Shown here: positions 6,487-28,180 of the stretch, in pieces
How positions within the stretch are numbered: the first letter of the stretch is position 1
How the letters are laid out: each line of letters starts with the position of its first letter
Origin: Patescibacteria group bacterium UBA4787
GTDB taxonomy: Bacteria > Patescibacteriota > Patescibacteriia > UBA2591 > UBA4787
Reading direction: 5' to 3'
Assembly (NCBI GenBank): GCA_002402995.1
Contig: DHGX01000004.1
Coordinates: 246,019-310,018 of the forward strand
Length of the DNA stretch: 64,000 nt
The notes under the pieces: model-generated
What the model was told of the DNA's origin: nothing
The model's input: only the letters and a program-made list of their open reading frames with translations
The model's database searches: none
Position numbers and translations under genes: made by a program

Positions 6487-6585
6487 AATGAATTAGAATT
6501 TAGAAAGTAGAAAATAAAATTAAAATATAAAATAAAAACAAAAAATAGAAAGTATGAATTAGAATTTATAATTTAGATTATTAAA

Positions 6586-7815: not shown

Positions 7816-7978
7816 GGCATTAAAATTATCAACTAATTTACGAATCCTTTATTTACCCCGTTAGAAGTCTGTCTTTATACGATTAAACACCGCCCTCGGA
7901 CAGACTTATGTTCTTTGGTTTACCCTCGTTAGTGTCCACAAAAAATTTTTTATCAAAAAAATTTTTTGTCAAGGACTT

Positions 7979-8836: not shown

Positions 8837-8869
8837 TCAAATCAAAATATATTAATTTTTAAAAAAGAA

Positions 8870-9433
8870 CTAATCTTTGTTAGAAAAAACAATATCGTCA
8901 ATCTTCCATCCTATAGATTCTTTAACGAAATACAAAACCGCGTTTTTATAAAAAATACTTACTTTGCCACCTATAGTCTCTGTCTGCTGACAAACGGCCT
9001 CGAAAACAGCGTTATTTCCTTCTATTTTTTGCCAATTATAAGAAATAACCTTGGTAATAATCTCTTGAAAATCGATTTTATTTTGATTAACAACTGCTTC
9101 GCTCTGTTTTATTAATTTCGACGTCATAGATTCAGACAACTCTTGAAGATTGATAATCGCGTTTTCTTTAGTATAACTTCCATAACGCTCAATAAACGAA
9201 CGAGCGATGGGCGTTAATTCGTTTTTGGTTATTTCTTCCGCGCTTAATAACGGCAGTTTATTCTCCGCTATTGATCCGTTGGTAGGAACATTCTGCTGAT
9301 TATTGGCTAAATTATCTTGCACGCGGATCTCTTTGGGCGCGGATTTTTCAGAATACCACAAACTGAGAAGATAAATTCCCAATCCTAAAACAGCGATAGC
9401 TAAAGCAATAATTAAAATTTTCTTTTTGGACAT
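8870..9433 (-). CDS. Hypothetical N-terminally anchored protein
   Basis: 187 aa. N-terminal TM (ILIIALAIAVLGLGIYLLSLWY). No recognisable catalytic motifs. Located in the T4SS-like locus. Confidence 0.3.
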   Translation of the reverse strand: MSKKKILIIALAIAVLGLGIYLLSLWYSEKSAPKEIRVQDNLANNQQNVPTNGSIAENKLPLLSAEEITKNELTPIARSFIERYGSYTKENAIINLQELSESMTSKLIKQSEAVVNQNKIDFQEIITKVISYNWQKIEGNNAVFEAVCQQTETIGGKVSIFYKNAVLYFVKESIGWKIDDIVFSNKD

Positions 9434-11645: not shown

Positions 11646-11761
11646 AAAAATTAGAATTTAGAATAATGAATTAAAAAATCCTGAAGCTTGAAACTTGTTT
11701 TTAAAAATTTAAAATTTTGATTTGTCATTTTGCATTTTGATTTTTAAATTTTGAATTTCTA

Positions 11762-12442
11762 TTACTCCTCTATTCTTAATTCATTTATATCTGTTAATTT
11801 TTGAGTTTGCGCTTCGAGTGGATTATAAGTTTCGTATAATAATTCAATAACGCTTTGGGTATCTAACGGCACAGCCTTCAAACCCATGCTGGCAAGCGCG
11901 CTAATTACACCATCAACACGGCGAAAAAGCACCTCTCGATAATCTTCAAATTTTTCTCTTTTTAATTTGATAAATGTGCCGACGGAAAATACGTCTTGCA
12001 AGCGAGAAAAAAATCCTCTTTTTTTATCACCGGCCGGATTATAGGGAACCAATAAATAAAATCTTTTGCTCATAATTTCTCCTAATTCTACTAACTCGCC
12101 CACGAAATCAATATAATCGGAGATCTGGACACGCAATAAATCATTCTTTTGATTCTGGCGCAAAGTTTTCAATTTTTCCAAATATGGCTCAATGACAAAT
12201 TTTCTCGATTGAATAACTATTTGTATTGGAAATTCTAAAGTATTTAAAAATTGAACATAAGCTTGAACAAGCGCCTCTTGTTCTTCTTGCGATTTTAAAC
12301 CAAAATTAATAGAAGAAACCAATAAAATAGCTCTAAGTGTCCCGTCTTTCAAGACAACGATATCTTTTTTTACTTCGGAAATATCCAAATATTGCTGTGT
12401 CGAAGTTGATAATTTTTTTCCTGCTAATTTCTCGGATTTCAT
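11762..12442 (-). CDS. Hypothetical cytoplasmic protein, a possible T4SS accessory component
   Basis: 226 aa, directly upstream of the VirB4 homologue in the same orientation. The segment DISEVKKDIVVLKDGTLRAILLVSSINFGLKSQEEQEALVQAY loosely resembles VirB4 N-terminal-domain sequence. There is no ATPase motif. Confidence 0.25.
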   Translation of the reverse strand: MKSEKLAGKKLSTSTQQYLDISEVKKDIVVLKDGTLRAILLVSSINFGLKSQEEQEALVQAYVQFLNTLEFPIQIVIQSRKFVIEPYLEKLKTLRQNQKNDLLRVQISDYIDFVGELVELGEIMSKRFYLLVPYNPAGDKKRGFFSRLQDVFSVGTFIKLKREKFEDYREVLFRRVDGVISALASMGLKAVPLDTQSVIELLYETYNPLEAQTQKLTDINELRIEE

Positions 12443-12471
12443 AATAAATTAGAATAATTTAGAATAATAAA

Positions 12472-12978
12472 TCAATCTTCTTTGTAAGCGCCACCCGTAT
12501 CTATTAATAGAGACAAATGGGAAAGCTTAGCGGTACTTAACGGTTTACGCGGTATCTCAATGTCGATTTTAGTTTTTTTTGCCCAATCTTTTTCTTCAAT
12601 TTTCGCTACGATTGGCCGCCAAATTCTTAATCCGGGTTTTCTGGCAGTTTGGAGAACGTTTAAAAAAAAGAAATGAATCGGCTTGCCGTTAACTCGACCG
12701 AAAGCCAACAAGCCAAAAATGATCAAAATTATTATTCCCTCCACTAAAAATAAACTAAAATCAGATGATTTATAGGCGATAAGCTCCAAAGCAGCCCCAA
12801 TAATTAAAATAACAAATTGTCTTGGTGTTAAGGGACCTAAAATATGAGGCTCAATATCGATAAATTGTGGAACGATAAATTGCATAGAAAGATTAGAATT
12901 TAGTAAGTAGAAAGTAGAAAATAGAATCAACGAATAATGAATTATTAGAAAGCGCAAAACGTAAAGCGAAAAACTCAA
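12472..12978 (-). CDS. Small membrane protein, possibly a VirB3/PrgI-like T4SS component
   Basis: 168 aa with 2-3 predicted TM helices (PRQFVILIIGAALELIAY; GIIILIIFGLLAFG). It is positioned upstream of the VirB4 homologue, as VirB3 usually is. The call rests mainly on position. Confidence 0.3.
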   Translation of the reverse strand: MSFSLYVLRFLIIHYSLILFSTFYLLNSNLSMQFIVPQFIDIEPHILGPLTPRQFVILIIGAALELIAYKSSDFSLFLVEGIIILIIFGLLAFGRVNGKPIHFFFLNVLQTARKPGLRIWRPIVAKIEEKDWAKKTKIDIEIPRKPLSTAKLSHLSLLIDTGGAYKED

Positions 12979-12994
12979 AATAACAGCGTAAAAT

Positions 12995-13375
12995 TTAAAA
13001 CTTTTTTTTTCCCCTTAATGTTAAAATACTGGAGCCAAGAATATTAGCAAGCTCTGTTGTTTCTTGAAGCAAGATTTCAGTTTTACTTCTGTCGGCTTTA
13101 GCAGAATCTCTTAACAACCCCAGCCAGAATTTACTTTCATTGGCGGATTTTAACGCGTAATTAAAAAAATTGGTAAAATCTCTTTTCGTGCTTCCCGCTT
13201 GAGCTTCTATAATGTTCGCGCCAATACTTGTAGCGCTTCGTAAAAGCTGTTTAGCGATTATTTGCGCGGTAAAATCATTTTTGCTCAAACCGTCAATAAA
13301 TTTAATAATATCCAAAGCGTATAAATATACTCGTTTTTTTAATTCTATTTTAGGTTTTGAGTTGTTATTTTGCAT
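12995..13375 (-). CDS. Four-helix-bundle protein (TIGR02436 / 23S rRNA intervening-sequence protein family)
   Basis: 126 aa. The sequence LDIIKFIDGLSKNDFTAQIIAKQLLRSATSIGANIIEAQAGSTKRDFTNFFNYALKSANESKFWLGLL is characteristic of this family. The gene sits inside the T4SS-like operon and is flanked by sequences repeated at 9474-9625. Confidence 0.75.
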   Translation of the reverse strand: MQNNNSKPKIELKKRVYLYALDIIKFIDGLSKNDFTAQIIAKQLLRSATSIGANIIEAQAGSTKRDFTNFFNYALKSANESKFWLGLLRDSAKADRSKTEILLQETTELANILGSSILTLRGKKKF

Positions 13376-13413
13376 TTTTCGTTTTTAGCTTTACGCTTAC
13401 TTCTATTTTCTAA

Positions 13414-15087
13414 TCAAAACCGGAGTTTCTCGTTTAACTCAGAGATTATATTAAAATCTTCAAAGGTTAGAGCTTGTCGATTCTCCTTGAGACGATTACT
13501 GATTACTTCTTCGATTGTTTTTTCTTTTTCTAATGCCTCTAAACCAATTTCTATATATAATTTATTTACCTCTGATTCTTTCCACGCCTTAATTCCTTGC
13601 GAAGCCTTCAAAAGCGAATCTTCGGCCAATAAGTTGATTTTATCTTTAATACGATCAGCCGCCTCTCTGGAATTTCTCCAACGACGCCAATCAACCAAAC
13701 GAACAGTCCTTAGCTCGTCTATTGGCCCATAAATTTTGGGGGTGACTTTGACTTCTTCAACTATCCTTCTCTCTCTTTGCGCTTCATCTGACAACGACCG
13801 ATTTAAAATTAATGGTTCGGCAAATATATCACTTGATTTTTCTTGGGGCTGAAGTTCCGAAATCAATTCAGAAGATATTGATTTTGATTCTTGCATTTTT
13901 TGAGCAGAAAAAGCGACATCCGATATGGGTTCAAGTGGAATAATATTGGATGGAATAAGTGTTTCTTCTTTCGACGTGTTTAAGCTGGGCACAACTGGTT
14001 CAACATTGATTGGTTCTGGCGTTTTTTGAGTTATTTGTATAATCTGTGTCGGTTCGGGTTCTATATAAGGAATATCTTTTATTTTTAAAGACAAGGATTC
14101 ATTTTTTGTTTCTGCTTCGGTAGGCAAAAATTTAACAGCCGTTGGCCCGGCTATTTCTCTTTCGGGAAGCGGACATTGAAAAGTTTCTAAACCCGCCATA
14201 GCCCCCTCCTCAAATCGAATCCTTTTGCTTTCTTTTTCTGGTTCTTCGGCGCTTTCTCCTTCTGTTGATTTAACAACAAAGTCTGCGGCAGTTTTTAAGC
14301 CATGAGTCAATCCCCCATCTGCCAGAGGCAAAGGAGCGGGAATTTTCTGTGTCTCAGAATTAAATTGACGCAACAAATCTTTTTTATTTTTTAAGACGGA
14401 AATTAAAAAATCTGTTTGGCTGTTGTCAAATTCCATTCCACCGACCTTAAAAGGACGCGTCAAAACATCTTTTGTTCCAATTTCATCGCGAATATCTTTT
14501 AAATAATTTATAATAATATTTTTTAAACGGCCCGTGGCCACCGAATCAGGAAAAGTAAAGTGGCTCATAACATCCGAAATCATTTCGTCGGTTTTTGCCC
14601 GCCTAGACTCGGTGAGACTGGCCTGTCTATTCAAACCATTGCCGCTCACATCATGAGGCTGAGCCGCCAACTCATTAATTTCTTCTTTGGTTAAAATATT
14701 GTCCCGATTTTCCGACAATGTTGAAGTTGGTAGGACTTGGACATGAGCCCCTGTTTCCGGTTGCCTTGACTCGGCAAAGCGGACAGATTGCGCGAGAGGC
14801 TCTTTTGTTCTTGGAGTTAAATTTGATAAAATCGGCAATAAAATTTTATTTAAACTATCTTTGACAATTTGCGCTGAGGATTGGTTTAATTTGTAATTAT
14901 TTATTAAATCATTTGGTAAATCATCGAAAGATACATCATTAATCAACAAACGGGTAACGACTTCAGTAATGTCAAGCCGGTATTCTTTTTCCAGTTGACT
15001 AAAAATTTCAAGATTTTCCGAGGTTGGGATTTGCTCTTTAACCTCTGGCGGTAGCGATAAGTATTTTTGTAAGTATTCGCTGTTCAT
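13414..15087 (-). CDS. Hypothetical soluble protein (557 aa), acidic and Ser/Glu/Pro-rich, no TM
   Basis: Long ORF in the T4SS-like operon with no recognisable motifs. Confidence 0.3.
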   Translation of the reverse strand: MNSEYLQKYLSLPPEVKEQIPTSENLEIFSQLEKEYRLDITEVVTRLLINDVSFDDLPNDLINNYKLNQSSAQIVKDSLNKILLPILSNLTPRTKEPLAQSVRFAESRQPETGAHVQVLPTSTLSENRDNILTKEEINELAAQPHDVSGNGLNRQASLTESRRAKTDEMISDVMSHFTFPDSVATGRLKNIIINYLKDIRDEIGTKDVLTRPFKVGGMEFDNSQTDFLISVLKNKKDLLRQFNSETQKIPAPLPLADGGLTHGLKTAADFVVKSTEGESAEEPEKESKRIRFEEGAMAGLETFQCPLPEREIAGPTAVKFLPTEAETKNESLSLKIKDIPYIEPEPTQIIQITQKTPEPINVEPVVPSLNTSKEETLIPSNIIPLEPISDVAFSAQKMQESKSISSELISELQPQEKSSDIFAEPLILNRSLSDEAQRERRIVEEVKVTPKIYGPIDELRTVRLVDWRRWRNSREAADRIKDKINLLAEDSLLKASQGIKAWKESEVNKLYIEIGLEALEKEKTIEEVISNRLKENRQALTFEDFNIISELNEKLRF

Positions 15088-15115: not shown

Positions 15116-17839
15116 CTAAGTCTCTTCGCCCTTAAGTTCTTTTAATTTGTCGGCTAATTCTTTAATTTCTTTAGTCAGTCTTTCTTTCTCGGGTAGGTCA
15201 GCTGTCGGATCTAATTTTTTAAGCTGAGAGCTCAAATCATTAAATTTACTAGTCAAATTTCCGATTGCCTCAACATTCACGTCGCCTTCGTATCCGAATG
15301 TTTTAGTTTGCAATCTCATCAACCACGCTATATTATTTAATGCTTTTTCCATATTTTTAAAATCCTGTCTTAGAGATGCCTGACCAAGTTTGTCTAAATA
15401 TTTTTGCATATCTTTATCCCCAAAAATCTGATCAATAACCGGCTGAGGTGTTTCAGCCGCTTCTTTTTTCGCCATGGAAAATTTTATATCGTGGTTATCC
15501 AGCGCTTCTTGAGGAATATCGTTTCGTTCAACCCAACTCTTAACGGATTTACCGGTGTGTTTTTCTACATACTGATCAAATCCGAGATCGGTTTGGCGTT
15601 TGCTTACTTGATCTTTATGCAAGTCTTTTAATTTCAATAAGGCTGCCCCGCCCTGAGTTTGCGTTAAAGCGCTGCCCAGTAAGGCTGCTAATTTTTTCTC
15701 GTCACTAACCGTTTCTTTGGGTATTTTTTTTGCCGTATCCTCGTATCGCGCAACATTAGCTTTCTGGACCCATGTTAATTCTTCAGCGCCGAAGCGACTA
15801 ACGACTTCGCCCTGAGCAGTCGCCCGGCGAGCCGTTTCTAATCTACTAGTTAATTCATTAATGGACTTGCTTAATTTATCGGCATCTTTAATTAATATCA
15901 CAGCTTCGTCGTTCTTTCCTTCTTTGCGAAGCGTCGCGGCTTTAATCTCAATATCAGTTCTCTCAACTTGCAATTTATTAATTTCAGCATTAATTTCGTC
16001 TGGCATTAAATTATATTTAACAGCCTCTTGTCTTTTTTGATCCCTTGCTTGTTTAAGTTGGGTAATTTCTTTTTGGGCTTCAATATATTCTGGTTTTTCG
16101 CGCGTCTCTTTTTCTAATTGTCCTTTGGCCTTTACTTGATCCCATTTTTCCATATATTCATCTGCTTCGGGAGTCCCTGGTTCAACACCCTTGCTTCTCA
16201 ATTCAGTATCGATTTCTGCCCGGGTATAACCCGGCTCGGCGCCTACCATTCTCTTGTCTTTAATCTCGATTGCTCTTTCGTTAATTTGAGCGTCTGACAA
16301 CTTAAATGCTTGTTCTTTCTCTTGAATTTGTTTGTCAAGATCCTCAACAGACTCTTCTTTTTTGCCGAAAATCCCCTTGATACCCTTAACGGCCGCGGGC
16401 ACTGGAGCGCGGAGCGCTTGACCAGCCACGTCTCGCCTTTTGGCCATTCGTTCGTATCTCTGCGCGTCTTGCTCTTTCAATTTGGCTTGAGCTTCTAAGG
16501 CTCGTCCTTCAGTAGTATCAGAACCTCCTTTAATCTTGGCTCGTTCTCTTAATGCTTCTGCTTCACCGCGACTATCCTTTGACATATCATAATACTTTTT
16601 TCCTCCCCGAGCCTGCATTTCACCCAACACGCCAAGCGTCCCGGCTTTAAGTTCACCTTTCAATTGAGTAGGTAACTCGCCTACCCGTTGACCAAGTCGC
16701 GCGAAAGGCGCCATACGCGCTCTTTTACGAGCGCTGCGACTCTCTTGCCAACCGGCTTTAGCCGCCTGATATCTATCTTTGATTGGTTTAAATGGCATAT
16801 CCACGGCGCCTTGACCCCACTGCTTAAGCTTGCCAGACATTTTGCCGGCGAATCCTCCACCATAAGCGCTTAATTTTTGCGCCTCGGTTATGGAAGTAAA
16901 AAGCAAGAAAATACCAACGATATAAGCCAATAAATTCTCAGAACTGGCGATTGCGCTGGCTGTAGCTGAAATCTTGGTACCCGCGGTATCTACCGCGACA
17001 GGAAGGAGTTTACTGCCCTCCTGCACTACGCTTAAAGAAAGCCAGATAAAAAAAGCTAATAACGGGCCCACCACCACCTCTTTTCCAAATTCTTCCCACC
17101 AGTTGCTACCTATGCCGGGAATATTTATCGGCAAAGCGTTTTTGACAAAAGCCAAAGGCGACACCATCACTAAAAACCAAAGATGAATAATGCGATAAAG
17201 TAGAATCACCAACATCGTAAATAAAGCGAATAAAGCAACGACGGACAGAACAAGCGCTAAAATTAAAGCTCCTACTTTATTAACATTAGCGCCTGCTGCG
17301 GCTACACTGGTATCCATTGACATAAGCTGAGACAAGCCCAGCATATTAATAAAATTTCCTTCAGCCGCGTCTTTAAAAGCATTAACAAAAGTCAGCATTA
17401 TCACTTGAGAAAAATCAATAATAATGCCGCAAATCAATTTGCTGAAGTTAACCAAAATAGCCGCCATAAATACCGCGCCGAGCAGCTTAGTATAAGAATA
17501 TTTCTCAATCTTCAAAACCGTAGCGAAGGCGATAAAAATCATAATCAAAACAAACAACATATTACAGATGTCGCGAATAATCACCCAACCGATGCTAACC
17601 ACTCTTGAATTTATGAAATCATTATATTGCGCGACGTCAATCAAAAGCCTGACTACAACGGCTATTAGACCTCCGAGTAATTCAATTATGGGTATTGCTA
17701 TCCAAGCCAAAACATCGGCTACGGCGGTTCCGATGTTTGCTGCTGCCAGACGAGGAAATAAAACAAAGACAGCGGTTAATAAAACCGCGACAATCGTAGG
17801 AAAGATTAATTTAATTTTTCGTTGCTTGATATGATTCAT
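15116..17839 (-). CDS. VirB6/TrbL-like polytopic membrane protein with a roughly 550-aa Lys/Glu-rich coiled-coil C-terminal extension
   Basis: 907 aa. The N-terminal roughly 330 aa contain about 7 hydrophobic helices (IVAVLLTAVFVLFP; IAIPIIELLGGLIAVVVRLLI; MLFVLIMIFIAFATVL; LLGAVFMAAILVNFSKLICGIIIDF; ALILALVLSVVALFALFTMLVILLY; LLAFFIWLSLSVV; IVGIFLLFTSI), as in TrbL/VirB6. The remainder is charged and heptad-like (KEQAFKLSDAQINERAIEIKDKR...KELADKLKELKGEE). Confidence 0.4.
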   Translation of the reverse strand: MNHIKQRKIKLIFPTIVAVLLTAVFVLFPRLAAANIGTAVADVLAWIAIPIIELLGGLIAVVVRLLIDVAQYNDFINSRVVSIGWVIIRDICNMLFVLIMIFIAFATVLKIEKYSYTKLLGAVFMAAILVNFSKLICGIIIDFSQVIMLTFVNAFKDAAEGNFINMLGLSQLMSMDTSVAAAGANVNKVGALILALVLSVVALFALFTMLVILLYRIIHLWFLVMVSPLAFVKNALPINIPGIGSNWWEEFGKEVVVGPLLAFFIWLSLSVVQEGSKLLPVAVDTAGTKISATASAIASSENLLAYIVGIFLLFTSITEAQKLSAYGGGFAGKMSGKLKQWGQGAVDMPFKPIKDRYQAAKAGWQESRSARKRARMAPFARLGQRVGELPTQLKGELKAGTLGVLGEMQARGGKKYYDMSKDSRGEAEALRERAKIKGGSDTTEGRALEAQAKLKEQDAQRYERMAKRRDVAGQALRAPVPAAVKGIKGIFGKKEESVEDLDKQIQEKEQAFKLSDAQINERAIEIKDKRMVGAEPGYTRAEIDTELRSKGVEPGTPEADEYMEKWDQVKAKGQLEKETREKPEYIEAQKEITQLKQARDQKRQEAVKYNLMPDEINAEINKLQVERTDIEIKAATLRKEGKNDEAVILIKDADKLSKSINELTSRLETARRATAQGEVVSRFGAEELTWVQKANVARYEDTAKKIPKETVSDEKKLAALLGSALTQTQGGAALLKLKDLHKDQVSKRQTDLGFDQYVEKHTGKSVKSWVERNDIPQEALDNHDIKFSMAKKEAAETPQPVIDQIFGDKDMQKYLDKLGQASLRQDFKNMEKALNNIAWLMRLQTKTFGYEGDVNVEAIGNLTSKFNDLSSQLKKLDPTADLPEKERLTKEIKELADKLKELKGEET

Positions 17840-17959: not shown

Positions 17960-20900
17960 TTACGGCTTAAGTAAAATTGAACCGCTGAACGAAGTGCCAT
18001 TCGAACGAACATCGCATTTATTGTCGCTACTATTAGAATCTTCGCAACAATTATCATCGCCCACGTGATTTCCGCCATTGCACCAGCCCCAATTATCCTT
18101 AACATAAACTGTGGGCTTGAATGAACATTGAGCCGGGCCTTCGCAGTGATAAAGATGGTTAAATTGGAAATAAGTGGGCGTGCAAGCATTTGGCACATTG
18201 CCGAAATTCAAATAACTCGTTCCATCTCTCTGATAGACCTCGTCGTTTTGACTTATGCCTAAATTTAAACAATCGGCGTTGGACGAACAACACATTGGCT
18301 TATGATTCTTGGCTAACATAGTATTAGAACCAGAAGACAATGGCTTGCCATCATCCCAATCAACCATAACTTCGCGAATCGGCATATGATTTTTATCCGC
18401 CCAAGCGTAAAATTTAAGCACGGCCGGATAAATACTGCCGCTACCAGTAAGATTATTTGTATCTTCGTTGTTAATGGTTATTTTCCCTATGGCGCCCAGA
18501 GAACAGCTTCCTTCGCCACTTAATTCTCCGCCGGTGCATTTGACTGAAGCGACTTTGGGAGCGGAATGACCAGTGACAGACAAACTTAATTGACTATCGT
18601 CAGGACTCCAAAGCTGGGCACCGTTAGAATACTGTCTAGTGGTAGTATTAAAACTATAGGCCTCGTAACTTTTAGCAAATAAGTTTTTAAGGGAGTCTTT
18701 GCTTGTGTAAACGAAACCATGCCGATTATCGCAGATTGTTCCCGAGACTATTAATGTAGAAGGTTTGGGAGAGCCGCTCGAACCATACGGTAAACAAATA
18801 GTAGCATAGAAGGCGTCATCAATTATTGCCGTAGTTTCATAACCCTTAAGACGATTAGTCCATGCTTTAGTAAAATTATTCGCGTCAGCAATCTTAGCTA
18901 CATAGCTTGCACCATTTTTTATGGAAACAATTATTTGACTAATAGAGGTTGTGCCTGTATGTTCGCTATTATCACAAAGTTGTATTCCTATACGCAACCT
19001 ACCGCCTGAATCAGCTCCCGCAGAAACGCCTACAAAATTGTTACCATCACTACAATTACCGCTCGGCTGAGTAAGATCAAAATTATTTGAGATATTCAAA
19101 TTTACCCACCCACTACCAGTAATTTCATCATCTCCCCCTCCCGAATCGTCACCACAAACAGTCTTTCCATAATTACCGCCCCATTCTTGAAAATACAAAC
19201 TAACTTGATCAATCTGGTCAAAATAAATTGGGATATCATTGTTATTTACCCAACTCACTACACCATAATTATCGACTTCATAATAACCGAGTATATTAGC
19301 ATCTGGACGACCACATACGCCATAACTATTAGATCCATCAAGAGTAAATTGCAAGCCACTACTAATATTTTGAGCGGTGCTGGCACCAAAAGCGGAATAC
19401 CATACGCTTATATTAGTATAATATCCTGCGCTTTGATATTGATTATAAATATCCGGATCGCCGACTGCGGCGCTGCCTGGCCACCAAGTCAAACAAGAAT
19501 TGAGTTCGCCTGGTACGGATAAATCTCTTTCCAAACAATAACCGCGCTGACCGATAGCGGTTGTTTTTTTACTCAAACGCGTACAGCCACTATTATACGG
19601 ATCCTGACTTGGCGCACACTCTTCGCCGAGTTTCGCGTCGCCACACTGCCCTTCAGCTGAACAAATACCGAGCCACTGGTCTTCAATATAAGTAAGATAA
19701 TTAACCGTGCCAGAATACTCGCCTTTTTTATAAGCGCACTGGCAATCTCTGTATAAATAACTTTGTGTATTATTATCATCGATCGGTTGACAAATATTGA
19801 TACCTTTATATTTATCGCTTAAGCCCGGAGCAAACGGCGAATCAATTTCCGGGTACAAACGGCAAGTTTTATCAATTACTCGGCCTCTGCCATCAACACC
19901 CGCATCGTCAGAACATTCACCGGGAGTTCCATCATCTAAAAGACCGCACTGTAACGCATTAGAACCTTTGACATCACAAAATCCACCGAAATTATCAATC
20001 TTGCTATCAATATTACACTTGAATGCGCAAGCTGCATTTTCTACGCCACAGTCTGTGTTGCTAGCGCAAGGACTACCTTCATAACTATCTTTTTTATAAC
20101 TGTTGGCGCTACAAATTTTCGCTGTATTTGCCTGACAAACACCGTTGCCACATTGCAAAGAATCAGTACAACTATTCCCGCTTAAGTCTATATAACCATT
20201 GCCATCGCAAAGTTTGGCACAAGTACTAGTATCACAACTCATACCTTCGGGGCAAGTACTAGAACAACCATAACCGCACCAAAACAAGGCCATACGAAAA
20301 TCTTTAGTGGCAATAGAAAAATCATTATTATTTTTTAAACGCATACTAGTGTTTCCACTACTGCCGGCACCGCCTTCAACACAAAAGCCGCAACAAGCAG
20401 CAGGTGGTAGACAAATTCCGCCAGCGCCGCAATCGGCATTAATGCTGCAGCCAGTAGTATTGCTAACATATTGGCGACTGCCAGAAGAACAAGTCCAAGA
20501 AGTTCCGGCTGGATATTCACAATTGCCTTGCCCCAAACCGTTAGTGCCAATGCAATCTGCGTCAATATTACAAGTATTACCAGCAGTTGAAATCGGAGCG
20601 CTATTTCCAGCCGAACAAGTCGTGCCAACGCAAGAACCACTGCCGCAATCGGCATTAGTAGCGCAAGACTCGCCAATCAGCGAAGTCTTGCCACTAATAC
20701 AACGAAGTTCTCCGCGGAGACTGGAAGTTAATTTATATATATTCTCATTATGTTCCCGATAAAGCTTGGGCGCCAAATTTTCAACCGGATAATAGTTATA
20801 TAAAGAATAACCGCTATAATCCCTGCCTGCCCAAGAAACATCGCGCGCTTTATATTCAGCTTCGTTTAAAATATCAGGATTATTAGTAACCACCGGATGA

Positions 20901-23900
20901 GCGCAAGAAATAGCGGCATTGTCAGACAACTGATCGCAACGCAACACATAATCACAAACATTTTTAAAGATATTTTCTGTTTTTGACCACTGTGGAGTAG
21001 AACCAGCGCAAGTCAGCCATTCACCGCATTCACGATCGCGGACAACTTTAATAATGGCGTTAGCGTCATTACCGCTTTGAGAATATCGCGCGCAATATTT
21101 GCAATAATCCGCGTCTTGATTATTGGAAATCTCGCAATCCAAAGTCTTCTTACAATCAACCGGCATAACTAAATCATATTTTTTCTCCTCGCTCTTTTTA
21201 TAAGTCGCGACTGAATTATAAGTAAAAGGCGTGGTGCCGTTATGATAATCTTTCAAACTACTATCCGCGAAAAGAATACAACCGGCTTTCGGGCTAACCT
21301 GACCATTACATGAGGTACGATCTAATTTAGTATTATTTAGATAATAATAAGGTTCAAGGGACTTGATTTCAACATCATCAAGAGAAGCTATTCCTCTTCC
21401 CATAGTATCAGCCGCATAAGCTTGATCAATAATTCTAAAATTAACAACAGCTTCTTTAATTTTTAAACTGCGCGGATTAAGCGGACCCGCGGCGGCTATA
21501 ACTTGGGAAAAATCGTGCCATCTGCCATCTATCATTGTTGAGTCACCTTGATAAATGACGGATATTGACGCATTAGTCCAATAACCATGGGTTATAACCC
21601 ATGCCCATCCATTGGGTATATTTATTACATCAAAACCAGCGCTTAAAGAATCTAAACACTTTGCCAGCGGAACTTCGGAGTTAGTTAGCGTAGCTGGATC
21701 ATAAGAACAAGGGGGAATATCATTTGGCGCTGGCAATCTATCGATACAATCAAGAATCCCATTACTACCGCTACTACCGTCTCTGTTAATAATGTCTATA
21801 CCCTTCCATTTTCCGTTATCCCACTTGTAACAAGCAGCCCAATCCTGCCATTCTCCGGTAGTAAACGCGTCGGATACGGTTATTCCATCATCCTTATAAT
21901 ACGCGGGAACACCCGACATGCCTTCAAAATTTAAGTCCACTGAAAGGTGCGCTATACTCTTTCTGTTGGGTATTTCACTATTATTTAAACCAATGGGTGT
22001 CAATAAATTATCAACTTTTATTTTGGCTTTTATAACATAATTACTGCCGGGCAAAGATATGGATGGTTTTATTTGTTGAGTGACAGCAGCCGCAAACCAG
22101 GACACCCCTGATGGTGCGTTCGTTACAAAACTGGCGTTTCGACTATCAATGCTCAATAATTTATTCTCGCCTTCTTGGGTAATCCCCACTGTTATAGAAC
22201 CTTTATCTACAAAATCATAATTTGTTGCATCATACCATGGGGAGGTAAGAGTCAAGCTATCTTCAAAACTTCCATTCTTTACTAAATTAAGAACCGCGGT
22301 GGCTTGAGTGTCAACAAAACTAGCGCAAGAATTTTGGCTGGAAGGACAAACGCCCACCCAATTATCGTAATTGCTTTCACCGGCCCAACGAATACCATAA
22401 GTTAACCCATCAGGCTGATAAGGATTTCCTTTGTTCGGGCCTTCTTCAGTATTATAATAACAAGCCTGATTAGTTCCTTTCTTGAACCAACCGCTTTTGA
22501 CTTCACTTCCGATATTAACATTCTCGCGATATTCGCATAATTTATTTTTTGGGTCGCGGAAATAAGCTTTAGATTTACTGCTCGCGTCAAAAAATTCTTC
22601 GCAACCCTGTCCGTTTTGATCGCATAAAATTGGACGGCGATCATAGAGATCAGGATCGTTTTTCAAATATTGATCAGACCAACCGACCACCGCGCCGTTT
22701 ATATCTAAAGTAGGCAAACCAAAACGCTCACAACCCTTAAATTCCGCTTTACAAATTTTTCTCGAATCAATCACTAAATAATCAACGCTGTCTGCCGGAA
22801 CATTTACGTCGTCAGTCAAAACCGCTGTATCTTTGTTAAATTCTTGGCCGAAAGGCGAAGAAGAATTATGGGTATCAATTACCAAATCGCAACCAACTTT
22901 ATCGTCCGGACATAAGCTACTGAAAGATTTGAGATAAGAAAATTTTCCAGCTCTATCTTTATAGCTGTCGCAGCCAATCATAAAACCCGGCGCTGAATTA
23001 TTGTTGTAATCTCTATCACAGACCAGCGGCGTTTTCCAAGAATTTTTAACGAGATAGATATTGCTAGTTATTTCTTGAAGTTTAATATTATCTAAATAAA
23101 ATCCTGTTGATGGTCCGGCGATAAACAAGCTTTCGTTGATATCTACGTCGCGGCTAAAATTAACCGGTCCAAGTTTAACTTCCTGCCACTCATCGCTAGC
23201 GATATTCTTAGAACCAAAAGACAGATCACTGCCAAATTTTGCCGAATAAGTTCCGCTACCCTTAACCCAGAAAGTTATCAAATATGATTTATCTTTCTTA
23301 ACCGAATTTTTTACTACGCGACTCACCGAATTAGTGCTTAAGACTCGCATAGAATGACCGCCCAACTTTATAGACTCTGTGCTTTGCAAAACATCACCCG
23401 TCCATAGAGTTATACTATTGTCAGCAGTTTCAAACTGATCATTAAACAAAGTTTTCATATTATTGGCGTTGTTGCCCTTATACTCGCGGCAGCCAACATT
23501 CGCCTTACCGCAAGAAACTCCCTCGCTTGGTATGGCCATATAAACGCAAATTCCCGTAGCAGGGTCATAACTCGTTCCCGGCACATCATTGGTTGGACAA
23601 TAAGCATTATCAACCGAAGTAGTCTTCCTAAACGGATGGCAATCTTGTGAACAGCTTATCGTGTTCTCATAAATACGATAATAAACCTCACCCGTGGCAC
23701 TATAAAATTGTTTACAGTGCGGATTGACCAAGATATCGTCTGCTCCGGCGCAAGACCCCAAATCCAAACGTAGATTAGAAACAACCGCTGGACCAGCATC
23801 ATTACCCTGTTTTAAATAATATCTTTTCAGTTGATATCCCGTAGTGTCGGAACCGATCCAGGTATAATAAGGATTGCAAACAACTTGACCGATCGCGACA

Positions 23901-26900
23901 GGATTGTTGTTCTGATCGGTTCTTACGCACTGCCTAAGATAAGAATAATACTCTTTTCCTTCACCGCCTTTGGCAACTTCATCTAGATTAGTAAATTCTT
24001 CGCATCCCACATCCGAAGCTGGACAACTCTTGCCGGTTGCCGAAATAAAATTAGTGAACGGCACGGCTGATTCAAAATTAGTAGCCGACTGACGAAAAGT
24101 ATTATAACCCACGCAATCCGAAGGGCACGTGTCTTCATTTTTAACAATAGCCGGAAAAGCGCTACCAGAAGAAATATTAGTATAAAGTTCGCACCCAACC
24201 TCCGTGGCGCTGCATTTTTTCGTAAAATTAGCGCACTTAACCGGATCTTCGTTGATAGTTCCACATTTCAAATAATCCGGCGCAGTTTTTAAATAAATTT
24301 TATTAATAGACGCGTATTCTTTATAAGGAGTGGTGTTCGCGCCTGATTCTAATTGAAAATCGTCAAAATAAATATCGCCGTTGATGTCATCACCTGGTTC
24401 CCATCTCAAAGTACGAACATCTAATTCTGAACCGTTAATTATTAACGGATAATTAAATGTGTAAATCAAACGTTGCCAATTATTAGTGATTTTTTGTTGA
24501 GAAATTTCTACCACGTTACTGCTGTCCACCGGGTTCGCGAAAAGATGAAGATTGATAGACTTTTCCGGTCTAACCCAAATCGAGAAAGTATATTGTTTGC
24601 CGATCGCGAGTGGCAGAGAAACGTCCGGATTAATCCGCGGACTGCCCCAAGCAGAAATAACTTTCGCCACTGCCTTGCCAGAATAAGCAAGGTTTTGATC
24701 CGCCAAGAAAAATCCGCCCTCAATATCCCAACCGTTTACACTGGTGAGCTGGCCTTGATTGTCGACATTATAATTTTCAAAACTACCATTCGGAATTAAA
24801 TTAACACCGGAACCGACCGTTGCTTGAATATATTCATGGCAACCCTCGTTGTCATTGGAACAGGCGCTAATATTTTTATTAAAAAAAATGACATTGCTTT
24901 GGTTGCCAACGACTTCCGGTCCAGAGCAAGTCCATGTCAAAATTTCTTTATTGTCAACAACTTCCGGTCCATAATTTTTACAATACCACCCGCAACCTAC
25001 ATTATTTTGATCGCAACCGCTAAAATCAATTGTATTTTTAACGAATGATTTTTCTTCGCCGGTATTAACATTTTTATAAATAGAACATGATTCATATTGT
25101 TTGGAGCATTCATCTCCTCCGAAACGCCAGATATTTTTTTCACGAGTGCAATAACCCCAACCCAAACACTGTCCCTTCTCGTCTGTTTTAAGACAATCTT
25201 TCAAGTCAACGCAAACTTCCTGCCTTTGATTAGAGTCGCCCAGCGGAACCGCGCCATAACCCCTGGCTTCACAGAAAAATTGCGGGATACTCAAAATCCA
25301 ATTTGGATCAACGAGGCGGTGGAACGGACTGTTCTCTTGATTGAAGCCATCAACGACTTCTTTCAAAGTATAATTTTTATTTCCCAATTCTCCGTTGGAA
25401 ATTTTTGTCGCGGCAATTTCTAAACCAAGAGGCGTGATTCTGGCGCGACGTAATTTTTTAATATTTGTTAAACTGAATCTTTCGTTGCAATCATTAAATC
25501 TATCGGCTTTGCCAATTTCGCCGACGGTCCAATTTTTATTCAAGAGATTTTTCTCTATCGCTTCGCTAATAGACATTTTCTCTTCAATCGCGCGACGGAA
25601 ACCAGCATCAATAACATTGGTATCCGGCAACACATAATTAGCCCGATCTATATAACTGGAATAATTTTCCAATAAATCAACCTGTCCGCCACTTCTAATT
25701 GGGGCCGTGGCTAAATCAGCCATAGCAATTTTAGACTCTGTCGCGCCAGGATTAAAAACAACCTTTCCGGACGGATCAATACTCCAGCTCGTATCAGGAT
25801 CTTCTGAAGGATTTAAGCCTTTTTTAAGTCTATCTAAAAGCTTACTTATTAAAGTATTAGTAAAAATGCCAATGGCGTCAGCTGCGGCTACGCCAGTGTA
25901 TTGTTTAACGCTGGCCGTGCCCTCCTGAACTGCTTTACGCGCTTGTTCTCCGACCAAAGTAGATGGCGTTTTAATTTTTCCGGAAACTAAACTCTCAATG
26001 CCCTTCATTGGACCATTAATTAAACCCCATACTTTTTTCTCTTCCTCGCGGGCAGCTTTTTCTAATTGAGCCTGTTCAGAAAGAACCATTAAAGCTCCCA
26101 GGTCGCTACCCGAAGCTGACATATCCTTCTGAAGATCTTCTAATGTAGTATTAGGACCGCCACCCGCATAACTCGGGCTTTCTACGCCGGCAATAAACTT
26201 AGTCACTCGCCCGTTAATTTCGGTAATCTGGCTAAGTAATTGACTAAAATAGGTTTGAGCCCTATTAGTTTGCGCCTTACAACAATTCGCATATTTCAAA
26301 GTGCAATCGGTCCCGATAGTATCACAACCCGTCAATCCTTCATTACAATAACCGCGACACTTGGGATTGCCACAAAAGTCGTTAACCGAGGCAATCGAAC
26401 AACTGACCGGATCGTCCATATTATTATTGGTAAAACAAGTGGTTTTATTTGGCAGGTCTTGAAGTTTTTTATTTTCTACTTTCAACTTATTCAAAAGGCC
26501 TTCATTAGCTATTACCGAGATATCCGGCCACTTTTGGTTGATGTCGTCTAAATATCCGGTGATTCTATTAAAAGAATTATTAATATCTGTTTTAAAACAG
26601 TCTATGACATACCTGGTCGTTTGATTAATCGAGGTGTCAGCATTATAAAGCTGGTTCAATTGTTCTAATCTGGCGCCGAATTCATCGCCAGTTTCCGTAT
26701 CAGCGCTAAAACTAACCAAATTCTTTTTTAATAAATCGCCTTGCGCTTTTCTAATTTTACTTAATGAACACAGTTTATTTTGAGATATGGGCGGCATTTT
26801 TGAAGAAATATCCGGAAGACTAAGAATTAATTTAAATTTTAATTGCGGATCAAGCGGATCGCAGAGGCTTTGGTTAATGAAACCTGAAGCTTGAGCGGTT

Positions 26901-27271
26901 TTATCAATAAATTCACCCAGGGCTTCGTCGCCGGCTTTTTTCCAATATTGAGGGTCGGTTAAAAACAACGGCTTCTGTCCCTTGCCACCGCTGGCTACAT
27001 ATTCAGCAGACTGTTGAGCCATTTGCCCTAAATAAACATTAAGCGCGTTTTTATAAGCCACGGCTCCGCCAACTTTCCATGCATATTTTAATAAATCGTT
27101 CACGCGCTCCCATACCCATTTTCCGATTTGCATGGCGATATGGCCGACATCGGTGAACTGCGCCTGGGCCGGTTCGGGATAAAATAAAATTGGCGATAAT
27201 ATCGACAAAAACATCGTTAATAAAACGATGCCGCTTAATAACTTAAAACCTATTTTTTTATTTAGGGACAT
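17960..27271 (-). CDS. Giant secreted or surface protein (3103 aa), Cys-rich, with three CBM-like jelly-roll modules and repeated Cys-knot-like modules; a putative adhesin or host-interaction protein
   Basis: Single uninterrupted 9.3-kb ORF. N-terminal signal/TM (LLSGIVLLTMFLSILSPILFYPEPAQAQ). Three NGSFE/FxxW jelly-roll-like segments (LIPNGSFENYNVDNQGQLTSVNGWDIEGG...; LVKNGSFEDSLTLTSPWYDATNY...; LFNDQFETADNSITLWTGDV...). At least five copies of C-x(2-3)-[ND]-x-D-C-G-x-G-x-C modules (CNIDADCIGTNGLGQGNC, CSINADCGAGGIC, CATNADCGSGSC, CTDSLQCGNGVC, CASNTDCGVENAAC). No LPXTG or other recognisable anchor. Confidence 0.6.
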   Translation of the reverse strand: MSLNKKIGFKLLSGIVLLTMFLSILSPILFYPEPAQAQFTDVGHIAMQIGKWVWERVNDLLKYAWKVGGAVAYKNALNVYLGQMAQQSAEYVASGGKGQKPLFLTDPQYWKKAGDEALGEFIDKTAQASGFINQSLCDPLDPQLKFKLILSLPDISSKMPPISQNKLCSLSKIRKAQGDLLKKNLVSFSADTETGDEFGARLEQLNQLYNADTSINQTTRYVIDCFKTDINNSFNRITGYLDDINQKWPDISVIANEGLLNKLKVENKKLQDLPNKTTCFTNNNMDDPVSCSIASVNDFCGNPKCRGYCNEGLTGCDTIGTDCTLKYANCCKAQTNRAQTYFSQLLSQITEINGRVTKFIAGVESPSYAGGGPNTTLEDLQKDMSASGSDLGALMVLSEQAQLEKAAREEEKKVWGLINGPMKGIESLVSGKIKTPSTLVGEQARKAVQEGTASVKQYTGVAAADAIGIFTNTLISKLLDRLKKGLNPSEDPDTSWSIDPSGKVVFNPGATESKIAMADLATAPIRSGGQVDLLENYSSYIDRANYVLPDTNVIDAGFRRAIEEKMSISEAIEKNLLNKNWTVGEIGKADRFNDCNERFSLTNIKKLRRARITPLGLEIAATKISNGELGNKNYTLKEVVDGFNQENSPFHRLVDPNWILSIPQFFCEARGYGAVPLGDSNQRQEVCVDLKDCLKTDEKGQCLGWGYCTREKNIWRFGGDECSKQYESCSIYKNVNTGEEKSFVKNTIDFSGCDQNNVGCGWYCKNYGPEVVDNKEILTWTCSGPEVVGNQSNVIFFNKNISACSNDNEGCHEYIQATVGSGVNLIPNGSFENYNVDNQGQLTSVNGWDIEGGFFLADQNLAYSGKAVAKVISAWGSPRINPDVSLPLAIGKQYTFSIWVRPEKSINLHLFANPVDSSNVVEISQQKITNNWQRLIYTFNYPLIINGSELDVRTLRWEPGDDINGDIYFDDFQLESGANTTPYKEYASINKIYLKTAPDYLKCGTINEDPVKCANFTKKCSATEVGCELYTNISSGSAFPAIVKNEDTCPSDCVGYNTFRQSATNFESAVPFTNFISATGKSCPASDVGCEEFTNLDEVAKGGEGKEYYSYLRQCVRTDQNNNPVAIGQVVCNPYYTWIGSDTTGYQLKRYYLKQGNDAGPAVVSNLRLDLGSCAGADDILVNPHCKQFYSATGEVYYRIYENTISCSQDCHPFRKTTSVDNAYCPTNDVPGTSYDPATGICVYMAIPSEGVSCGKANVGCREYKGNNANNMKTLFNDQFETADNSITLWTGDVLQSTESIKLGGHSMRVLSTNSVSRVVKNSVKKDKSYLITFWVKGSGTYSAKFGSDLSFGSKNIASDEWQEVKLGPVNFSRDVDINESLFIAGPSTGFYLDNIKLQEITSNIYLVKNSWKTPLVCDRDYNNNSAPGFMIGCDSYKDRAGKFSYLKSFSSLCPDDKVGCDLVIDTHNSSSPFGQEFNKDTAVLTDDVNVPADSVDYLVIDSRKICKAEFKGCERFGLPTLDINGAVVGWSDQYLKNDPDLYDRRPILCDQNGQGCEEFFDASSKSKAYFRDPKNKLCEYRENVNIGSEVKSGWFKKGTNQACYYNTEEGPNKGNPYQPDGLTYGIRWAGESNYDNWVGVCPSSQNSCASFVDTQATAVLNLVKNGSFEDSLTLTSPWYDATNYDFVDKGSITVGITQEGENKLLSIDSRNASFVTNAPSGVSWFAAAVTQQIKPSISLPGSNYVIKAKIKVDNLLTPIGLNNSEIPNRKSIAHLSVDLNFEGMSGVPAYYKDDGITVSDAFTTGEWQDWAACYKWDNGKWKGIDIINRDGSSGSNGILDCIDRLPAPNDIPPCSYDPATLTNSEVPLAKCLDSLSAGFDVINIPNGWAWVITHGYWTNASISVIYQGDSTMIDGRWHDFSQVIAAAGPLNPRSLKIKEAVVNFRIIDQAYAADTMGRGIASLDDVEIKSLEPYYYLNNTKLDRTSCNGQVSPKAGCILFADSSLKDYHNGTTPFTYNSVATYKKSEEKKYDLVMPVDCKKTLDCEISNNQDADYCKYCARYSQSGNDANAIIKVVRDRECGEWLTCAGSTPQWSKTENIFKNVCDYVLRCDQLSDNAAISCAHPVVTNNPDILNEAEYKARDVSWAGRDYSGYSLYNYYPVENLAPKLYREHNENIYKLTSSLRGELRCISGKTSLIGESCATNADCGSGSCVGTTCSAGNSAPISTAGNTCNIDADCIGTNGLGQGNCEYPAGTSWTCSSGSRQYVSNTTGCSINADCGAGGICLPPAACCGFCVEGGAGSSGNTSMRLKNNNDFSIATKDFRMALFWCGYGCSSTCPEGMSCDTSTCAKLCDGNGYIDLSGNSCTDSLQCGNGVCQANTAKICSANSYKKDSYEGSPCASNTDCGVENAACAFKCNIDSKIDNFGGFCDVKGSNALQCGLLDDGTPGECSDDAGVDGRGRVIDKTCRLYPEIDSPFAPGLSDKYKGINICQPIDDNNTQSYLYRDCQCAYKKGEYSGTVNYLTYIEDQWLGICSAEGQCGDAKLGEECAPSQDPYNSGCTRLSKKTTAIGQRGYCLERDLSVPGELNSCLTWWPGSAAVGDPDIYNQYQSAGYYTNISVWYSAFGASTAQNISSGLQFTLDGSNSYGVCGRPDANILGYYEVDNYGVVSWVNNNDIPIYFDQIDQVSLYFQEWGGNYGKTVCGDDSGGGDDEITGSGWVNLNISNNFDLTQPSGNCSDGNNFVGVSAGADSGGRLRIGIQLCDNSEHTGTTSISQIIVSIKNGASYVAKIADANNFTKAWTNRLKGYETTAIIDDAFYATICLPYGSSGSPKPSTLIVSGTICDNRHGFVYTSKDSLKNLFAKSYEAYSFNTTTRQYSNGAQLWSPDDSQLSLSVTGHSAPKVASVKCTGGELSGEGSCSLGAIGKITINNEDTNNLTGSGSIYPAVLKFYAWADKNHMPIREVMVDWDDGKPLSSGSNTMLAKNHKPMCCSSNADCLNLGISQNDEVYQRDGTSYLNFGNVPNACTPTYFQFNHLYHCEGPAQCSFKPTVYVKDNWGWCNGGNHVGDDNCCEDSNSSDNKCDVRSNGTSFSGSILLKP

Positions 27272-27406: not shown

Positions 27407-28180
27407 TTAATTGGAATTTGAAATGCCTTGTAAGAACATATTTTTTAGGGTTTCGTCGTCTATCGCATCAAGCATATTTTTATCAACACCATTCTGCAAA
27501 AGTAACGCTCGGATTTCATTAACATTTAATAAAGAAGTGTCTTGATTTATGCCAGAATTGGCTTCAGATTGCCCGCTTAGATTCGGCGAGGATGTGCTAT
27601 TTTTTAAGACACTTTCGAGGTCTATGCCTGTTTCTTGTTTGGTTTCATTATACATATTTTTTAGGGTTTCGTCATCTATCTTATCCACCGCATCTTTAGA
27701 CATACCGCCCTGTGTAATTAAAATTTCTCTAATTTGGTCGGCGGTCAAATTATCCGCATTTTGCTCGCTTTTCGGAACACCAAAACTAATGGGCTGACCA
27801 GCCTTATTGTCTGGAAAATAACTGCCAACATTATTCGGCGTTGAAGCCGGATCAAGAGGGTTACTACCCGCTGAAACTTCTTCTTTGTCATTGAAACCGT
27901 CGCCATCAGAATCAGCTAAATATTTTGAGGTATGATAGTTGTTTTCTTCTTGCCAATCCGGAATTCCATCACCATCCGTATCCTTGTCTTGATTGTTTTT
28001 TAGAATATTTTTTAATTTTTCCGCCGAAGGATTAATTTTCGCCGCGAATGGCTGATAAATTGTGTTTTTAATTTTAAAATAACCGACGGTTAGAATAGAA
28101 ATAGAAAATATAACCAGACCGAATATTATAATTCCGTCTTTATAAGTATTAAAGAATAATTTTGAACCGATTTGTTTCAT
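27407..28180 (-). CDS. Secreted or N-anchored protein with thrombospondin-type-3-like Ca-binding Asp repeats and an internally duplicated helical module
   Basis: 257 aa. N-terminal TM. DTDGDGIPDWQEEN and DSDGDGFNDKEEV (DxDxDG). A duplicated module ...IREILITQGGMSKDAVDKIDDETLKNMYNE / ...IRALLLQNGVDKNMLDAIDDETLKNMFLQ. The DNA also shows the duplication (27420-27500 versus 27650-27730). Confidence 0.45.
   Translation of the reverse strand: MKQIGSKLFFNTYKDGIIIFGLVIFSISILTVGYFKIKNTIYQPFAAKINPSAEKLKNILKNNQDKDTDGDGIPDWQEENNYHTSKYLADSDGDGFNDKEEVSAGSNPLDPASTPNNVGSYFPDNKAGQPISFGVPKSEQNADNLTADQIREILITQGGMSKDAVDKIDDETLKNMYNETKQETGIDLESVLKNSTSSPNLSGQSEANSGINQDTSLLNVNEIRALLLQNGVDKNMLDAIDDETLKNMFLQGISNSN

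Follow-up and report, generated by a model that had tools for sequence, protein, structure and literature searches.

We analysed a window of 64,000 nt of DNA from Patescibacteria group bacterium UBA4787 (GCA_002402995.1, contig DHGX01000004.1, positions 246,019-310,018, forward strand) and concentrated on one very large gene in it, whose product of 3103 amino acids (aa) is called the giant below. Coordinates are those of the window, with the strand in brackets. The gene, 17960..27271 (-), is a single uninterrupted open reading frame (ORF) from ATG to stop and takes up 14.6% of the window, in agreement with the original prediction of one ORF of about 9.3 kb and about 15%. On the same strand, from upstream to downstream, lie leuS, ksgA, a gene for a protein with TSP3 repeats, the giant, a VirB6-like gene, a gene for a 557-aa protein, the other genes of a type IV secretion system (T4SS), and radA.

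The giant has a size of about 330 kDa and contains 131 Cys residues (4.2%), with S, G, N and D also abundant. An identical protein is encoded on contigs from three independently assembled sequencing runs, and a profile search found the same layout in 120 near-full-length relatives, each of at least 2,300 aa. Because of this agreement, an assembly chimera or a hidden frameshift, the artefacts named in the original prediction, can be excluded.

Domain layout of the giant and its family

The family was searched with a profile of aa 38-665, and the matches were clustered at 50% identity. This N-terminal domain (N-domain; 25277..27160 (-)), by which the family is defined, is predicted to be all-helical, and aa 150-400 within it form a variable, Cys-containing insert that shorter relatives lack. 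The profile reached 1,578 clusters at E<=1e-3 and 1,107 at E<=1e-30. Its match lies always at the N-terminus, starting at residue 30-80, in proteins mostly of 2,500-3,500 aa, and the median length in the family is 2,918 aa; there was no match to the N-domain profile in PDB or Pfam. By these profile matches the giant belongs to an undescribed, very large and length-conserved family of at least 1,100 clusters, of which no description was found in full-text searches of the literature. Members were found in Patescibacteria of the Uhr-, Falkow-, Magasanik- and Kerfeldbacteria types. The layout described in the following was read from an alignment with the giant's 18 homologues from the first protein search, all of 2,600-3,250 aa; those that carry a label are Patescibacteria, one of them Magasanikbacteria.

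The N-terminus is a signal peptide (aa 1-37; 27161..27271 (-)), which begins with MSLNKK, continues with an h-region and ends at PAQA/QF. In a scan for transmembrane (TM) segments, the sole hydrophobic segment of the whole protein was aa 11-29, directly before this site. Such a segment at the N-terminus is shared by 95% of the 120 long relatives, and the AxA-like cleavage site is conserved. No C-terminal TM helix or LPXTG signal was found in the giant or in any of the 120 relatives (0/120), nor any other TM segment in the giant. This bears out the original prediction of a signal or TM N-terminus without a C-terminal anchor, and the sequence characterises the giant as a Sec-exported protein with a cleavable-looking signal and without a covalent or membrane anchor.

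Three modules resemble the carbohydrate-binding modules (CBM) of the jelly-roll type. Module 1 (aa 824-985; 24317..24802 (-)), which has no Cys, matched Pfam CBM_4_9 (PF02018) with an E-value of 1e-9, and its aa 824-951 scored 39.4 bits against a cut-off of 25.9. Modules 2 and 3 were not detected by Pfam and were recognised by comparison with module 1. Module 2 (aa 1268-1405; 23057..23470 (-)), present in 18/18 aligned relatives, is matched over the whole domain by hhalign (97%, E 4e-11). Module 3, which contains a large internal insert (aa 1653-1975; 21347..22315 (-)), is matched by hhalign in its first half (92%, E 8e-7, first 80 columns), and a hidden Markov model (HMM) of the family's module 1 matches aa 1653-1836; in the 18-sequence alignment, the region of this third jelly roll is variable or absent among relatives. 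An AlphaFold2 (AF2) model of aa 978-1660, computed from a 12-sequence alignment, was all-beta with a mean confidence (pLDDT) of 69.5, and residues 990-1477 were mostly at 70-90. Module 2 in this model has the beta-sandwich jelly-roll fold and superposes on CBM22, although the identity to solved CBMs is only 13-19%. Across the family, the number of CBM-like modules varies from 1 to 5 per protein. The three jelly rolls of the original prediction are therefore upheld by Pfam, hhalign and the HMM, and the likeness of its NGSFE-type segments to the CBM fold by the model of module 2, while the positions that it gave, 830, 1250 and 1530, had to be corrected to aa 828 (NGSFE), 1276 (FNDQFE) and 1666 (NGSFE). 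Sequence and model together support an assignment to the CBM4/9/22 type, that is, to modules of a sugar-binding type by family, from which we infer glycan binding itself.

The jelly rolls alternate with Cys-rich connectors. Connector 1 (aa 666-823; 24803..25276 (-)) has 13 Cys, most of them conserved in at least 14 of the 18 relatives, and C-x6-C hairpins at 753/760 and 804/811. Connector 2 (aa 986-1267; 23471..24316 (-)) has 18 Cys, is all-beta in the AF2 model at a pLDDT of 70-90, and contains hairpins at 1020/1027, 1083/1090 and 1254/1261. Connector 3 (aa 1406-1652; 22316..23056 (-)) has 12 Cys and hairpins at 1454/1461, 1507/1514, 1550/1557 and 1642/1649, and its second half was poorly modelled. 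A fourth Cys-rich region (aa 1976-2194; 20690..21346 (-)), again with 12 Cys, is marked by the conserved motifs CGEWLxC and RDxSWxGxDYSGYS. When the predicted beta structure of the connectors was used in a fold search, no match beyond CBM was obtained. In total, 54 Cys of the giant are conserved in at least 14 of the 18 relatives, and 9-10 of the conserved pairs are C-x6-C elements of the type x-C-x5-G-C-[ER]-[EL]-[YF]; the median number of such elements is 7 per protein in the 120 long relatives. By the alignments, the repeated Cys module of the family is the C-x6-C hairpin and not the knot motif put forward in the original prediction.

The knot motif itself is concentrated in a lineage-specific insertion (aa 2195-2455; 19907..20689 (-)) of 260 aa with 31 Cys, in which five copies lie at aa 2203, 2234, 2275, 2368 and 2402. 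For the pattern C-x-x-[ND]-x-[DNQ]-C, 5 occurrences were observed in the giant compared with 0.15 expected from shuffles. The alignment occupancy of the insertion is 0.07-0.3, so that it is essentially unique to the giant among the 18 aligned relatives, and the closest relative (P0002), which is 73% identical over aa 1-2194, is without it entirely. All five strings that had been predicted for the C-terminal third are present, but they are confined to this insertion and are not a general feature of that third. The further claim that such knots are more typical of eukaryotic extracellular proteins was not borne out. The whole giant had no Pfam match at E<=1 to a curated Cys-rich domain family of the eukaryote-type Cys-knot or EGF-like kind, and the motif occurs in 83% of the 120 bacterial relatives, in 0-11 copies at varying places, mostly in the second half. 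Because it is scattered through a bacterial family in this way, the knot motif is not a eukaryotic signature; judged from these sequences, it is a mobile mini-module of the family.

Behind the insertion, conservation returns in aa 2456-2610 (19442..19906 (-)), with the motifs CRLYPExDSPF, GYCLExD and CLTWWPG, where the occupancy of the family alignment rises to 0.95 and the identity is about 0.43. A hypervariable region follows (aa 2611-2900; 18572..19441 (-)), with 37-65% identity to P0002. The protein ends with a conserved C-terminal domain (aa 2901-3103; 17960..18571 (-)), which contains LKFYAWADxNxMPIRxVxVDW, DNWGWC and a hydrophobic last strand. This domain is possibly PKD-like: the motifs VDWxDG and DNWG in the alignment of the C-terminal 200 aa are of the PKD kind, but Pfam PKD (PF00801) matched only 1/10 members, with E 0.002. 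When its profile was compared with PDB, only fibrinogen was matched (E ~1e-3), which we regard as spurious.

Several relatives have gained modules of the adhesion type, namely PA14 and dockerin-type repeats, as seen from precomputed Pfam annotations, and further CBM-like modules. For example, connector 3 of P0012-P0014 (P0012 is encoded in locus L005) contains DxNGDG repeats of a dockerin/EF-hand-like kind, a C-terminal extension of P0018 bears a PA14 domain, and P0010 has an additional CBM inside the N-domain together with a 500-aa Cys-rich block.

The T4SS locus and its conservation

Directly upstream of the giant, the TSP3 partner (27407..28180 (-)) encodes 257 aa with a TM segment at aa 17-35 and two TSP3-type Ca-binding repeats (Pfam TSP3_bac, E 2.5e-13). 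Past these repeats, its aa 145-250 show an internal duplication of a unit of about 30 aa ending in DDETLKNM[YF]. Directly downstream of the giant, a protein of 907 aa (15116..17839 (-)) combines about 7-8 TM helices within the first 320 aa with a large C-terminal domain that is hydrophilic. It is a candidate for an extended VirB6, since its TM region gave sub-threshold matches to TrbL/VirB6 in 3/8 orthologues (E 1.5e-4 to 6e-3). The 120-nt gap between the giant and this gene contains no terminator-like site; overall, the scan for promoters and terminators was not enriched over shuffles.

The T4SS core (9630..15087 (-)) consists of the 557-aa protein, a gene for a 23S-IVS protein, PrgI/VirB3, TrsD and VirB4, with Pfam matches to PrgI and the TraG P-loop. 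VirB4 matched the NCBIfam CD1110-type model with 362 bits against a cut-off of 325, and TrsD was also recognised through NCBIfam. The VirB4 function is split between an ATPase of 671 aa (9630-11645 (-)) and a TrsD-like protein of 226 aa (11762-12442 (-)) that corresponds to the N-terminal portion of VirB4; this combination of TrsD and VirB4 matches the pattern described for Patescibacteria (PMC12102498). The 23S-IVS-type gene (12995-13375 (-)), located between the gene for the 557-aa protein and PrgI, encodes a four-helix bundle of 126 aa (Pfam E 1.6e-18) and is not at that spot in L033, the locus of the closest relative P0002. Further downstream (4127..9433 (-)) there are TM proteins of 187 and 285 aa, a VirB2-like pilin, a 430-aa TM protein and a fusion of a pilin with Peptidase_C39, with Pfam E-values of 1.5e-6 and 1e-4 for T4SS_pilin and 7e-7 for Peptidase_C39_2. 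Both the pilin (6586-7815 (-); 409 aa, 14 Cys) and the pilin-Peptidase_C39_2 fusion (4127-5188 (-); 353 aa, 10 Cys) have long extensions. Neither a VirD4-type coupling protein nor a relaxase was found among the locus genes scanned. From its gene content, the locus is a relaxase-less, pilin-bearing T4SS similar to MPF_FATA, as has been described for Patescibacteria (PMC12102498), and a radA neighbour is typical of the T4SS of class ABY1 (PMC12102498). The original prediction placed the giant at the head of a T4SS-like operon. The T4SS genes do follow the giant, but the conserved TSP3 gene precedes it.

Gene order was compared in four loci obtained by exact protein look-up and in 26 loci taken from one-genome-per-species contigs through the C-terminal motif, with a query built from 5 closer sequences; the titles of these 26 loci name Uhrbacteria, Falkowbacteria, Magasanikbacteria, Kerfeldbacteria, Parcubacteria and Patescibacteria. 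In every locus that extends to the start of the giant, the gene immediately upstream of it is the TSP3 gene. On the downstream side, 22 loci had enough sequence. The VirB6-like gene follows the giant directly in 16 of them and is found within 10 kb in 19, and in most loci the distance between the two genes ranges from an overlap to about 160 nt. Loci of sufficient length continue with PrgI, TrsD and VirB4. As judged from gene order, the linkage of the giant with the T4SS is strong but not absolute. In three loci of the Uhrbacteria type (L018, L023 and L025), 6-9 kb of intervening genes include an ORF of about 670-700 aa directly upstream of the VirB6-like gene.

A comparison of the window with L033 in amino-acid identity indicates how differently the parts of the locus change. 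The housekeeping neighbours are 84-89% identical, VirB4 96%, and TrsD and PrgI 93%. Identity is 76% for the TSP3 protein and 73% for the giant over aa 1-2194, and it falls to 42% over the giant's aa 2466-3103 (37-65% in 150-aa windows). For the VirB6-like protein it is 61%, a value that refers to the first 480 aa only, and the C-terminal domain of this protein cannot be aligned with L033. By these identities, change is fastest in those parts of the locus that are exposed, and most of all in the giant's distal third. Such fast divergence would be expected for surfaces that meet a host or host defences.

Some further features of the locus and the window were noted. The leader between the TSP3 gene and the ATG of the giant (27272-27406 (-)) contains, after the TSP3 stop codon, a hairpin with a 9-bp stem, AATCCCGAC-TGC-GTCGGGATT, and a tandem heptamer, TAATTCT x4, which ends 12 nt before the ATG; no obvious Shine-Dalgarno sequence was seen there. 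The copy number of TAATTCT is equal in two other assemblies. In L033, the corresponding leader carries two hairpin units and GTAATTT x3-4; the tandem words of more distant loci differ again and measure 7-9 nt. By its sequence, the heptamer/hairpin leader could be regulatory or phase-variable. Divergent from leuS there is a gene for a LysM-LysM-CHAP peptidoglycan hydrolase (31791-33092 (+)), which is syntenic in the window, L001, L004 and L033, while L005 has LysM+Peptidase_M23 instead. This protein is a candidate wall hydrolase of the VirB1 kind, which would place leuS and ksgA inside an extended T4SS locus. A thioredoxin-fold protein of 196 aa (52338-52928 (-)) carries a TM helix at its N-terminus and WCPHC as its active site (DsbA-type CPHC). 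Because the window encodes this membrane-anchored protein, extracytoplasmic disulfide formation is plausible, and the protein may plausibly serve as the disulfide oxidoreductase for the Cys-rich exported proteins of the locus. The window also encodes PilM (49423-50634 (-)), a prepilin peptidase (A24; 57935-58720 (-)) and a ComF-like phosphoribosyltransferase (50792-51544 (+)), so the organism has type IV pilus and competence genes as well.

Possible role of the giant

The reading that we favour, at roughly even confidence, is that the giant is a Sec-exported, disulfide-stabilised accessory of the T4SS and serves as a stalk or adhesin that binds the host surface, presumably its glycans; the role of an adhesin, which the original prediction would place at the tip of the apparatus, is as such plausible for the giant. 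In this model, the conserved helical N-domain would be the cell-proximal end and would dock, without a covalent bond, on the TSP3 protein, on the large extracellular domain of the VirB6-like protein, or on both. The Cys-rich connectors would form a rigid rod, and the CBM modules together with the fast-evolving distal third would bind host-cell polysaccharide, thereby holding the T4SS channel or pilus against the host. Several points weigh against this. The protein has no anchor that would keep it on the cell, and its association with the T4SS is one of gene order only. Because leuS and ksgA are syntenic with the giant too, part of this linkage may be inherited gene order. Among the 22 loci, the VirB6-like gene lies 6-9 kb further on in 3, with other genes between, and another 3 have no T4SS gene within 10 kb downstream of the giant. 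The AF2 model of the N-domain is all-helical but of low confidence (pLDDT 58, pTM 0.30), and a Foldseek search of PDB with this model of the supposed docking end gave only generic long-helix matches (E>0.4, TM<0.2) that allow no interpretation.

The same exceptions in gene order feed the main competing explanation, which we consider somewhat unlikely: the giant would be a general surface fibre for binding a host or a substrate, independent of the T4SS, and the two would be adjacent by inheritance, as leuS and ksgA are. It gains from the TSP3-giant pairs that stand without, or at a distance from, the T4SS genes, and from the other classes of Patescibacteria, which have a T4SS without a reported homologue of the giant (PMC12102498). 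It does not readily account for the fact that proteins of only 26-37% identity keep their gene order and tight spacing, with a 1-nt overlap in L004, or that the extracellular part of the VirB6-like protein evolves fast, as the giant does. We regard as unlikely, and less probable than the independent fibre, that it is the VirB5 equivalent of a monoderm T4SS, a "mega-VirB5" whose helical N-domain is VirB5/TrbJ-like, is seated on the VirB6 platform and finally reaches the tip of a VirB2-like pilus. Such a protein would carry about 2,500 aa of adhesin in the form of a 330-kDa disulfide-braced rod with several CBMs, and its distal third would set host specificity. The gene immediately precedes the VirB6-like one and thus occupies the VirB5 position (for comparison, the order in R46 is VirB4, TraC, Eex, VirB6); the N-domain of the product, behind its Sec signal, is predicted to be all-helical, and VirB2-like pilins are encoded in the locus. 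In 36-43 of 158 family representatives, about 6-fold over background, the mature chain starts with [QG]-hydrophobic-[PVI]-V-x-D after AxA, and real VirB5/TraC proteins start likewise (TraC of R46; VirB5 of R7K, Xylella, Hydrogenophaga and others). Pfam DUF4141 was matched below threshold in 5/10 N-termini (best 26.8 bits, cut-off 30), and one member gave NCBIfam TrbJ at E 0.007 and VirB5 at E 0.27. In Bacteroides conjugative transposons, the gene for the DUF4141 protein is the neighbour of traJ in the stretch between traG and traJ, where we take traG to be the VirB4 homologue and traJ the VirB6 homologue. However, the matches of the VirB5, TrbJ and DUF4141 profiles to the giant family were all sub-threshold, none being significant, and they cover only the signal peptide and about 15 residues. 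By hhalign, the N-domain profile is not significant against TraC (0.9%) and reaches 3% (P 0.014) against six VirB5 sequences. The motif is degenerate in the window's own giant (AQA/QFTDVG), the N-domain has 2-3 times the size of VirB5, and no VirB5 was matched in the fold search with its low-confidence model.

The original prediction also allowed that the giant is the exported cargo of the apparatus. A cargo or effector role agrees with a gene inside a T4SS locus, and relaxases are absent from Patescibacteria T4SS loci, for which protein export is among the functions discussed (PMC12102498; PMC10633639). Nevertheless, the family as a whole keeps the Sec signal peptide and its AxA site, the giant with its 131 Cys is rich in disulfides and would be folded on the outer side of the membrane, and no VirD4-type coupling protein was among the scanned genes; for these reasons we give a T4SS cargo the lowest probability of the readings considered. 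Moreover, in a monoderm, Sec export already delivers the giant outside the membrane. A polymorphic toxin of the kind used in contact-dependent inhibition (CDI) was rejected, as the extreme C-terminus is conserved, no toxin domain was found, and the next gene is VirB6-like instead of a small gene of the immunity type. Very improbable as well, although a shade less so than a cargo, is a structural envelope protein similar to those of an S-layer. A very large, exported and anchorless protein of a widespread family with conserved length would suit such a role, but there is no match to SLH or another S-layer family, the content of CBM modules differs between relatives, and the hypervariable distal third suits recognition better than a lattice. 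The high Cys content also speaks against it, because S-layer proteins are usually Cys-poor.

The accessory reading matters since the T4SS of Patescibacteria is essential for epibiotic growth in the one genetically tractable species, has no relaxase or coupling protein and may build a pilus (PMC10633639, PMC12857230, PMC11665869), and since reviews call its role unknown. With its sugar-binding-type modules, its diverging distal end and its position at the front of the T4SS gene set, the giant is a concrete candidate for the host-touching part of this system in a major class of these bacteria. With the CBMs, the N-domain and the TSP3 partner, defined modules are at hand for expression and testing, although these bacteria have not been cultured. 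If the giant were indeed a mega-VirB5, it would be the VirB5-like component that is missing from the Patescibacteria T4SS, without known precedent and in a monoderm, and epibiotic growth in Saccharibacteria depends on the counterpart of the system to which it would belong. In general terms, we infer a T4SS-linked surface adhesin and multi-CBM exoprotein, which is of a known kind, while the family itself is unannotated; no new mechanism is shown, and the finding is therefore not categorically new.

Comparison with known systems

A parallel may be drawn with PrgB, the aggregation substance of the pCF10 type, and with related adhesins from conjugative T4SS operons of Gram-positive bacteria. Both PrgB and the giant are large Sec-exported surface proteins encoded together with a monoderm T4SS of the MPF_FATA type, and both are thought to bring the machine to the target cell. 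Unlike PrgB, the giant has no LPXTG and no PrgB-type domains (CBM_4_9 being the only Pfam match), and it is 2-3 times larger, Cys-rich and equipped with CBM-like jelly rolls. A survey of the Patescibacteria T4SS found VirB2-like pilins and detected no adhesins such as PrgB (PMC12102498). In the parts of its text and supplements that were accessible, CBM_4_9 or TSP3 near virB4 is not mentioned.

Like the giant, the minor pilins VirB5, TraC and TrbJ, which are stalk and pilus-tip adhesins of the T4SS, carry a Sec signal, are encoded next to VirB6 and have an N-terminal region that is helical, in the giant by prediction, and a part of the giant's family shares the mature start hydrophobic-[PVI]-V-x-D with them; on the other hand, VirB5 proteins have only about 220-260 aa, and there is no significant profile match. 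The beta-jelly-roll fold and the N-G-x-F-E start of the modules are shared with CBM4, CBM9 and CBM22 of glycoside hydrolases and with the CBM-like receptor-binding domains of the toxins Vip3, iota/CDT and Cry, but in the giant no catalytic or toxin domain is attached to them. CagY, the VirB10 homologue in the cag T4SS of Helicobacter pylori, is likewise a very large protein of a T4SS locus. It also has Cys-containing repeated modules and shows rearrangement between strains. It differs by a VirB10 domain and by its passage through a diderm envelope, whereas the giant, in a monoderm, has no detected VirB10 domain and only a signal peptide.

Finally, huge exported proteins that are presumed to be adhesins are known from other host-dependent bacteria of ultra-small or predatory kinds, as in the FhaB-domain proteins of more than 5,000 aa in Patescibacterium danicum (PMC11809585) and the giant genes of Omnitrophota (bioRxiv 10.1101/2023.11.21.568195). 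The giant resembles them in these respects and differs in having no Pfam match to FhaB or DUF2341. Also, the P. danicum proteins are without full-length homologues (PMC11809585), whereas the family of the giant keeps one architecture across more than 1,100 clusters.

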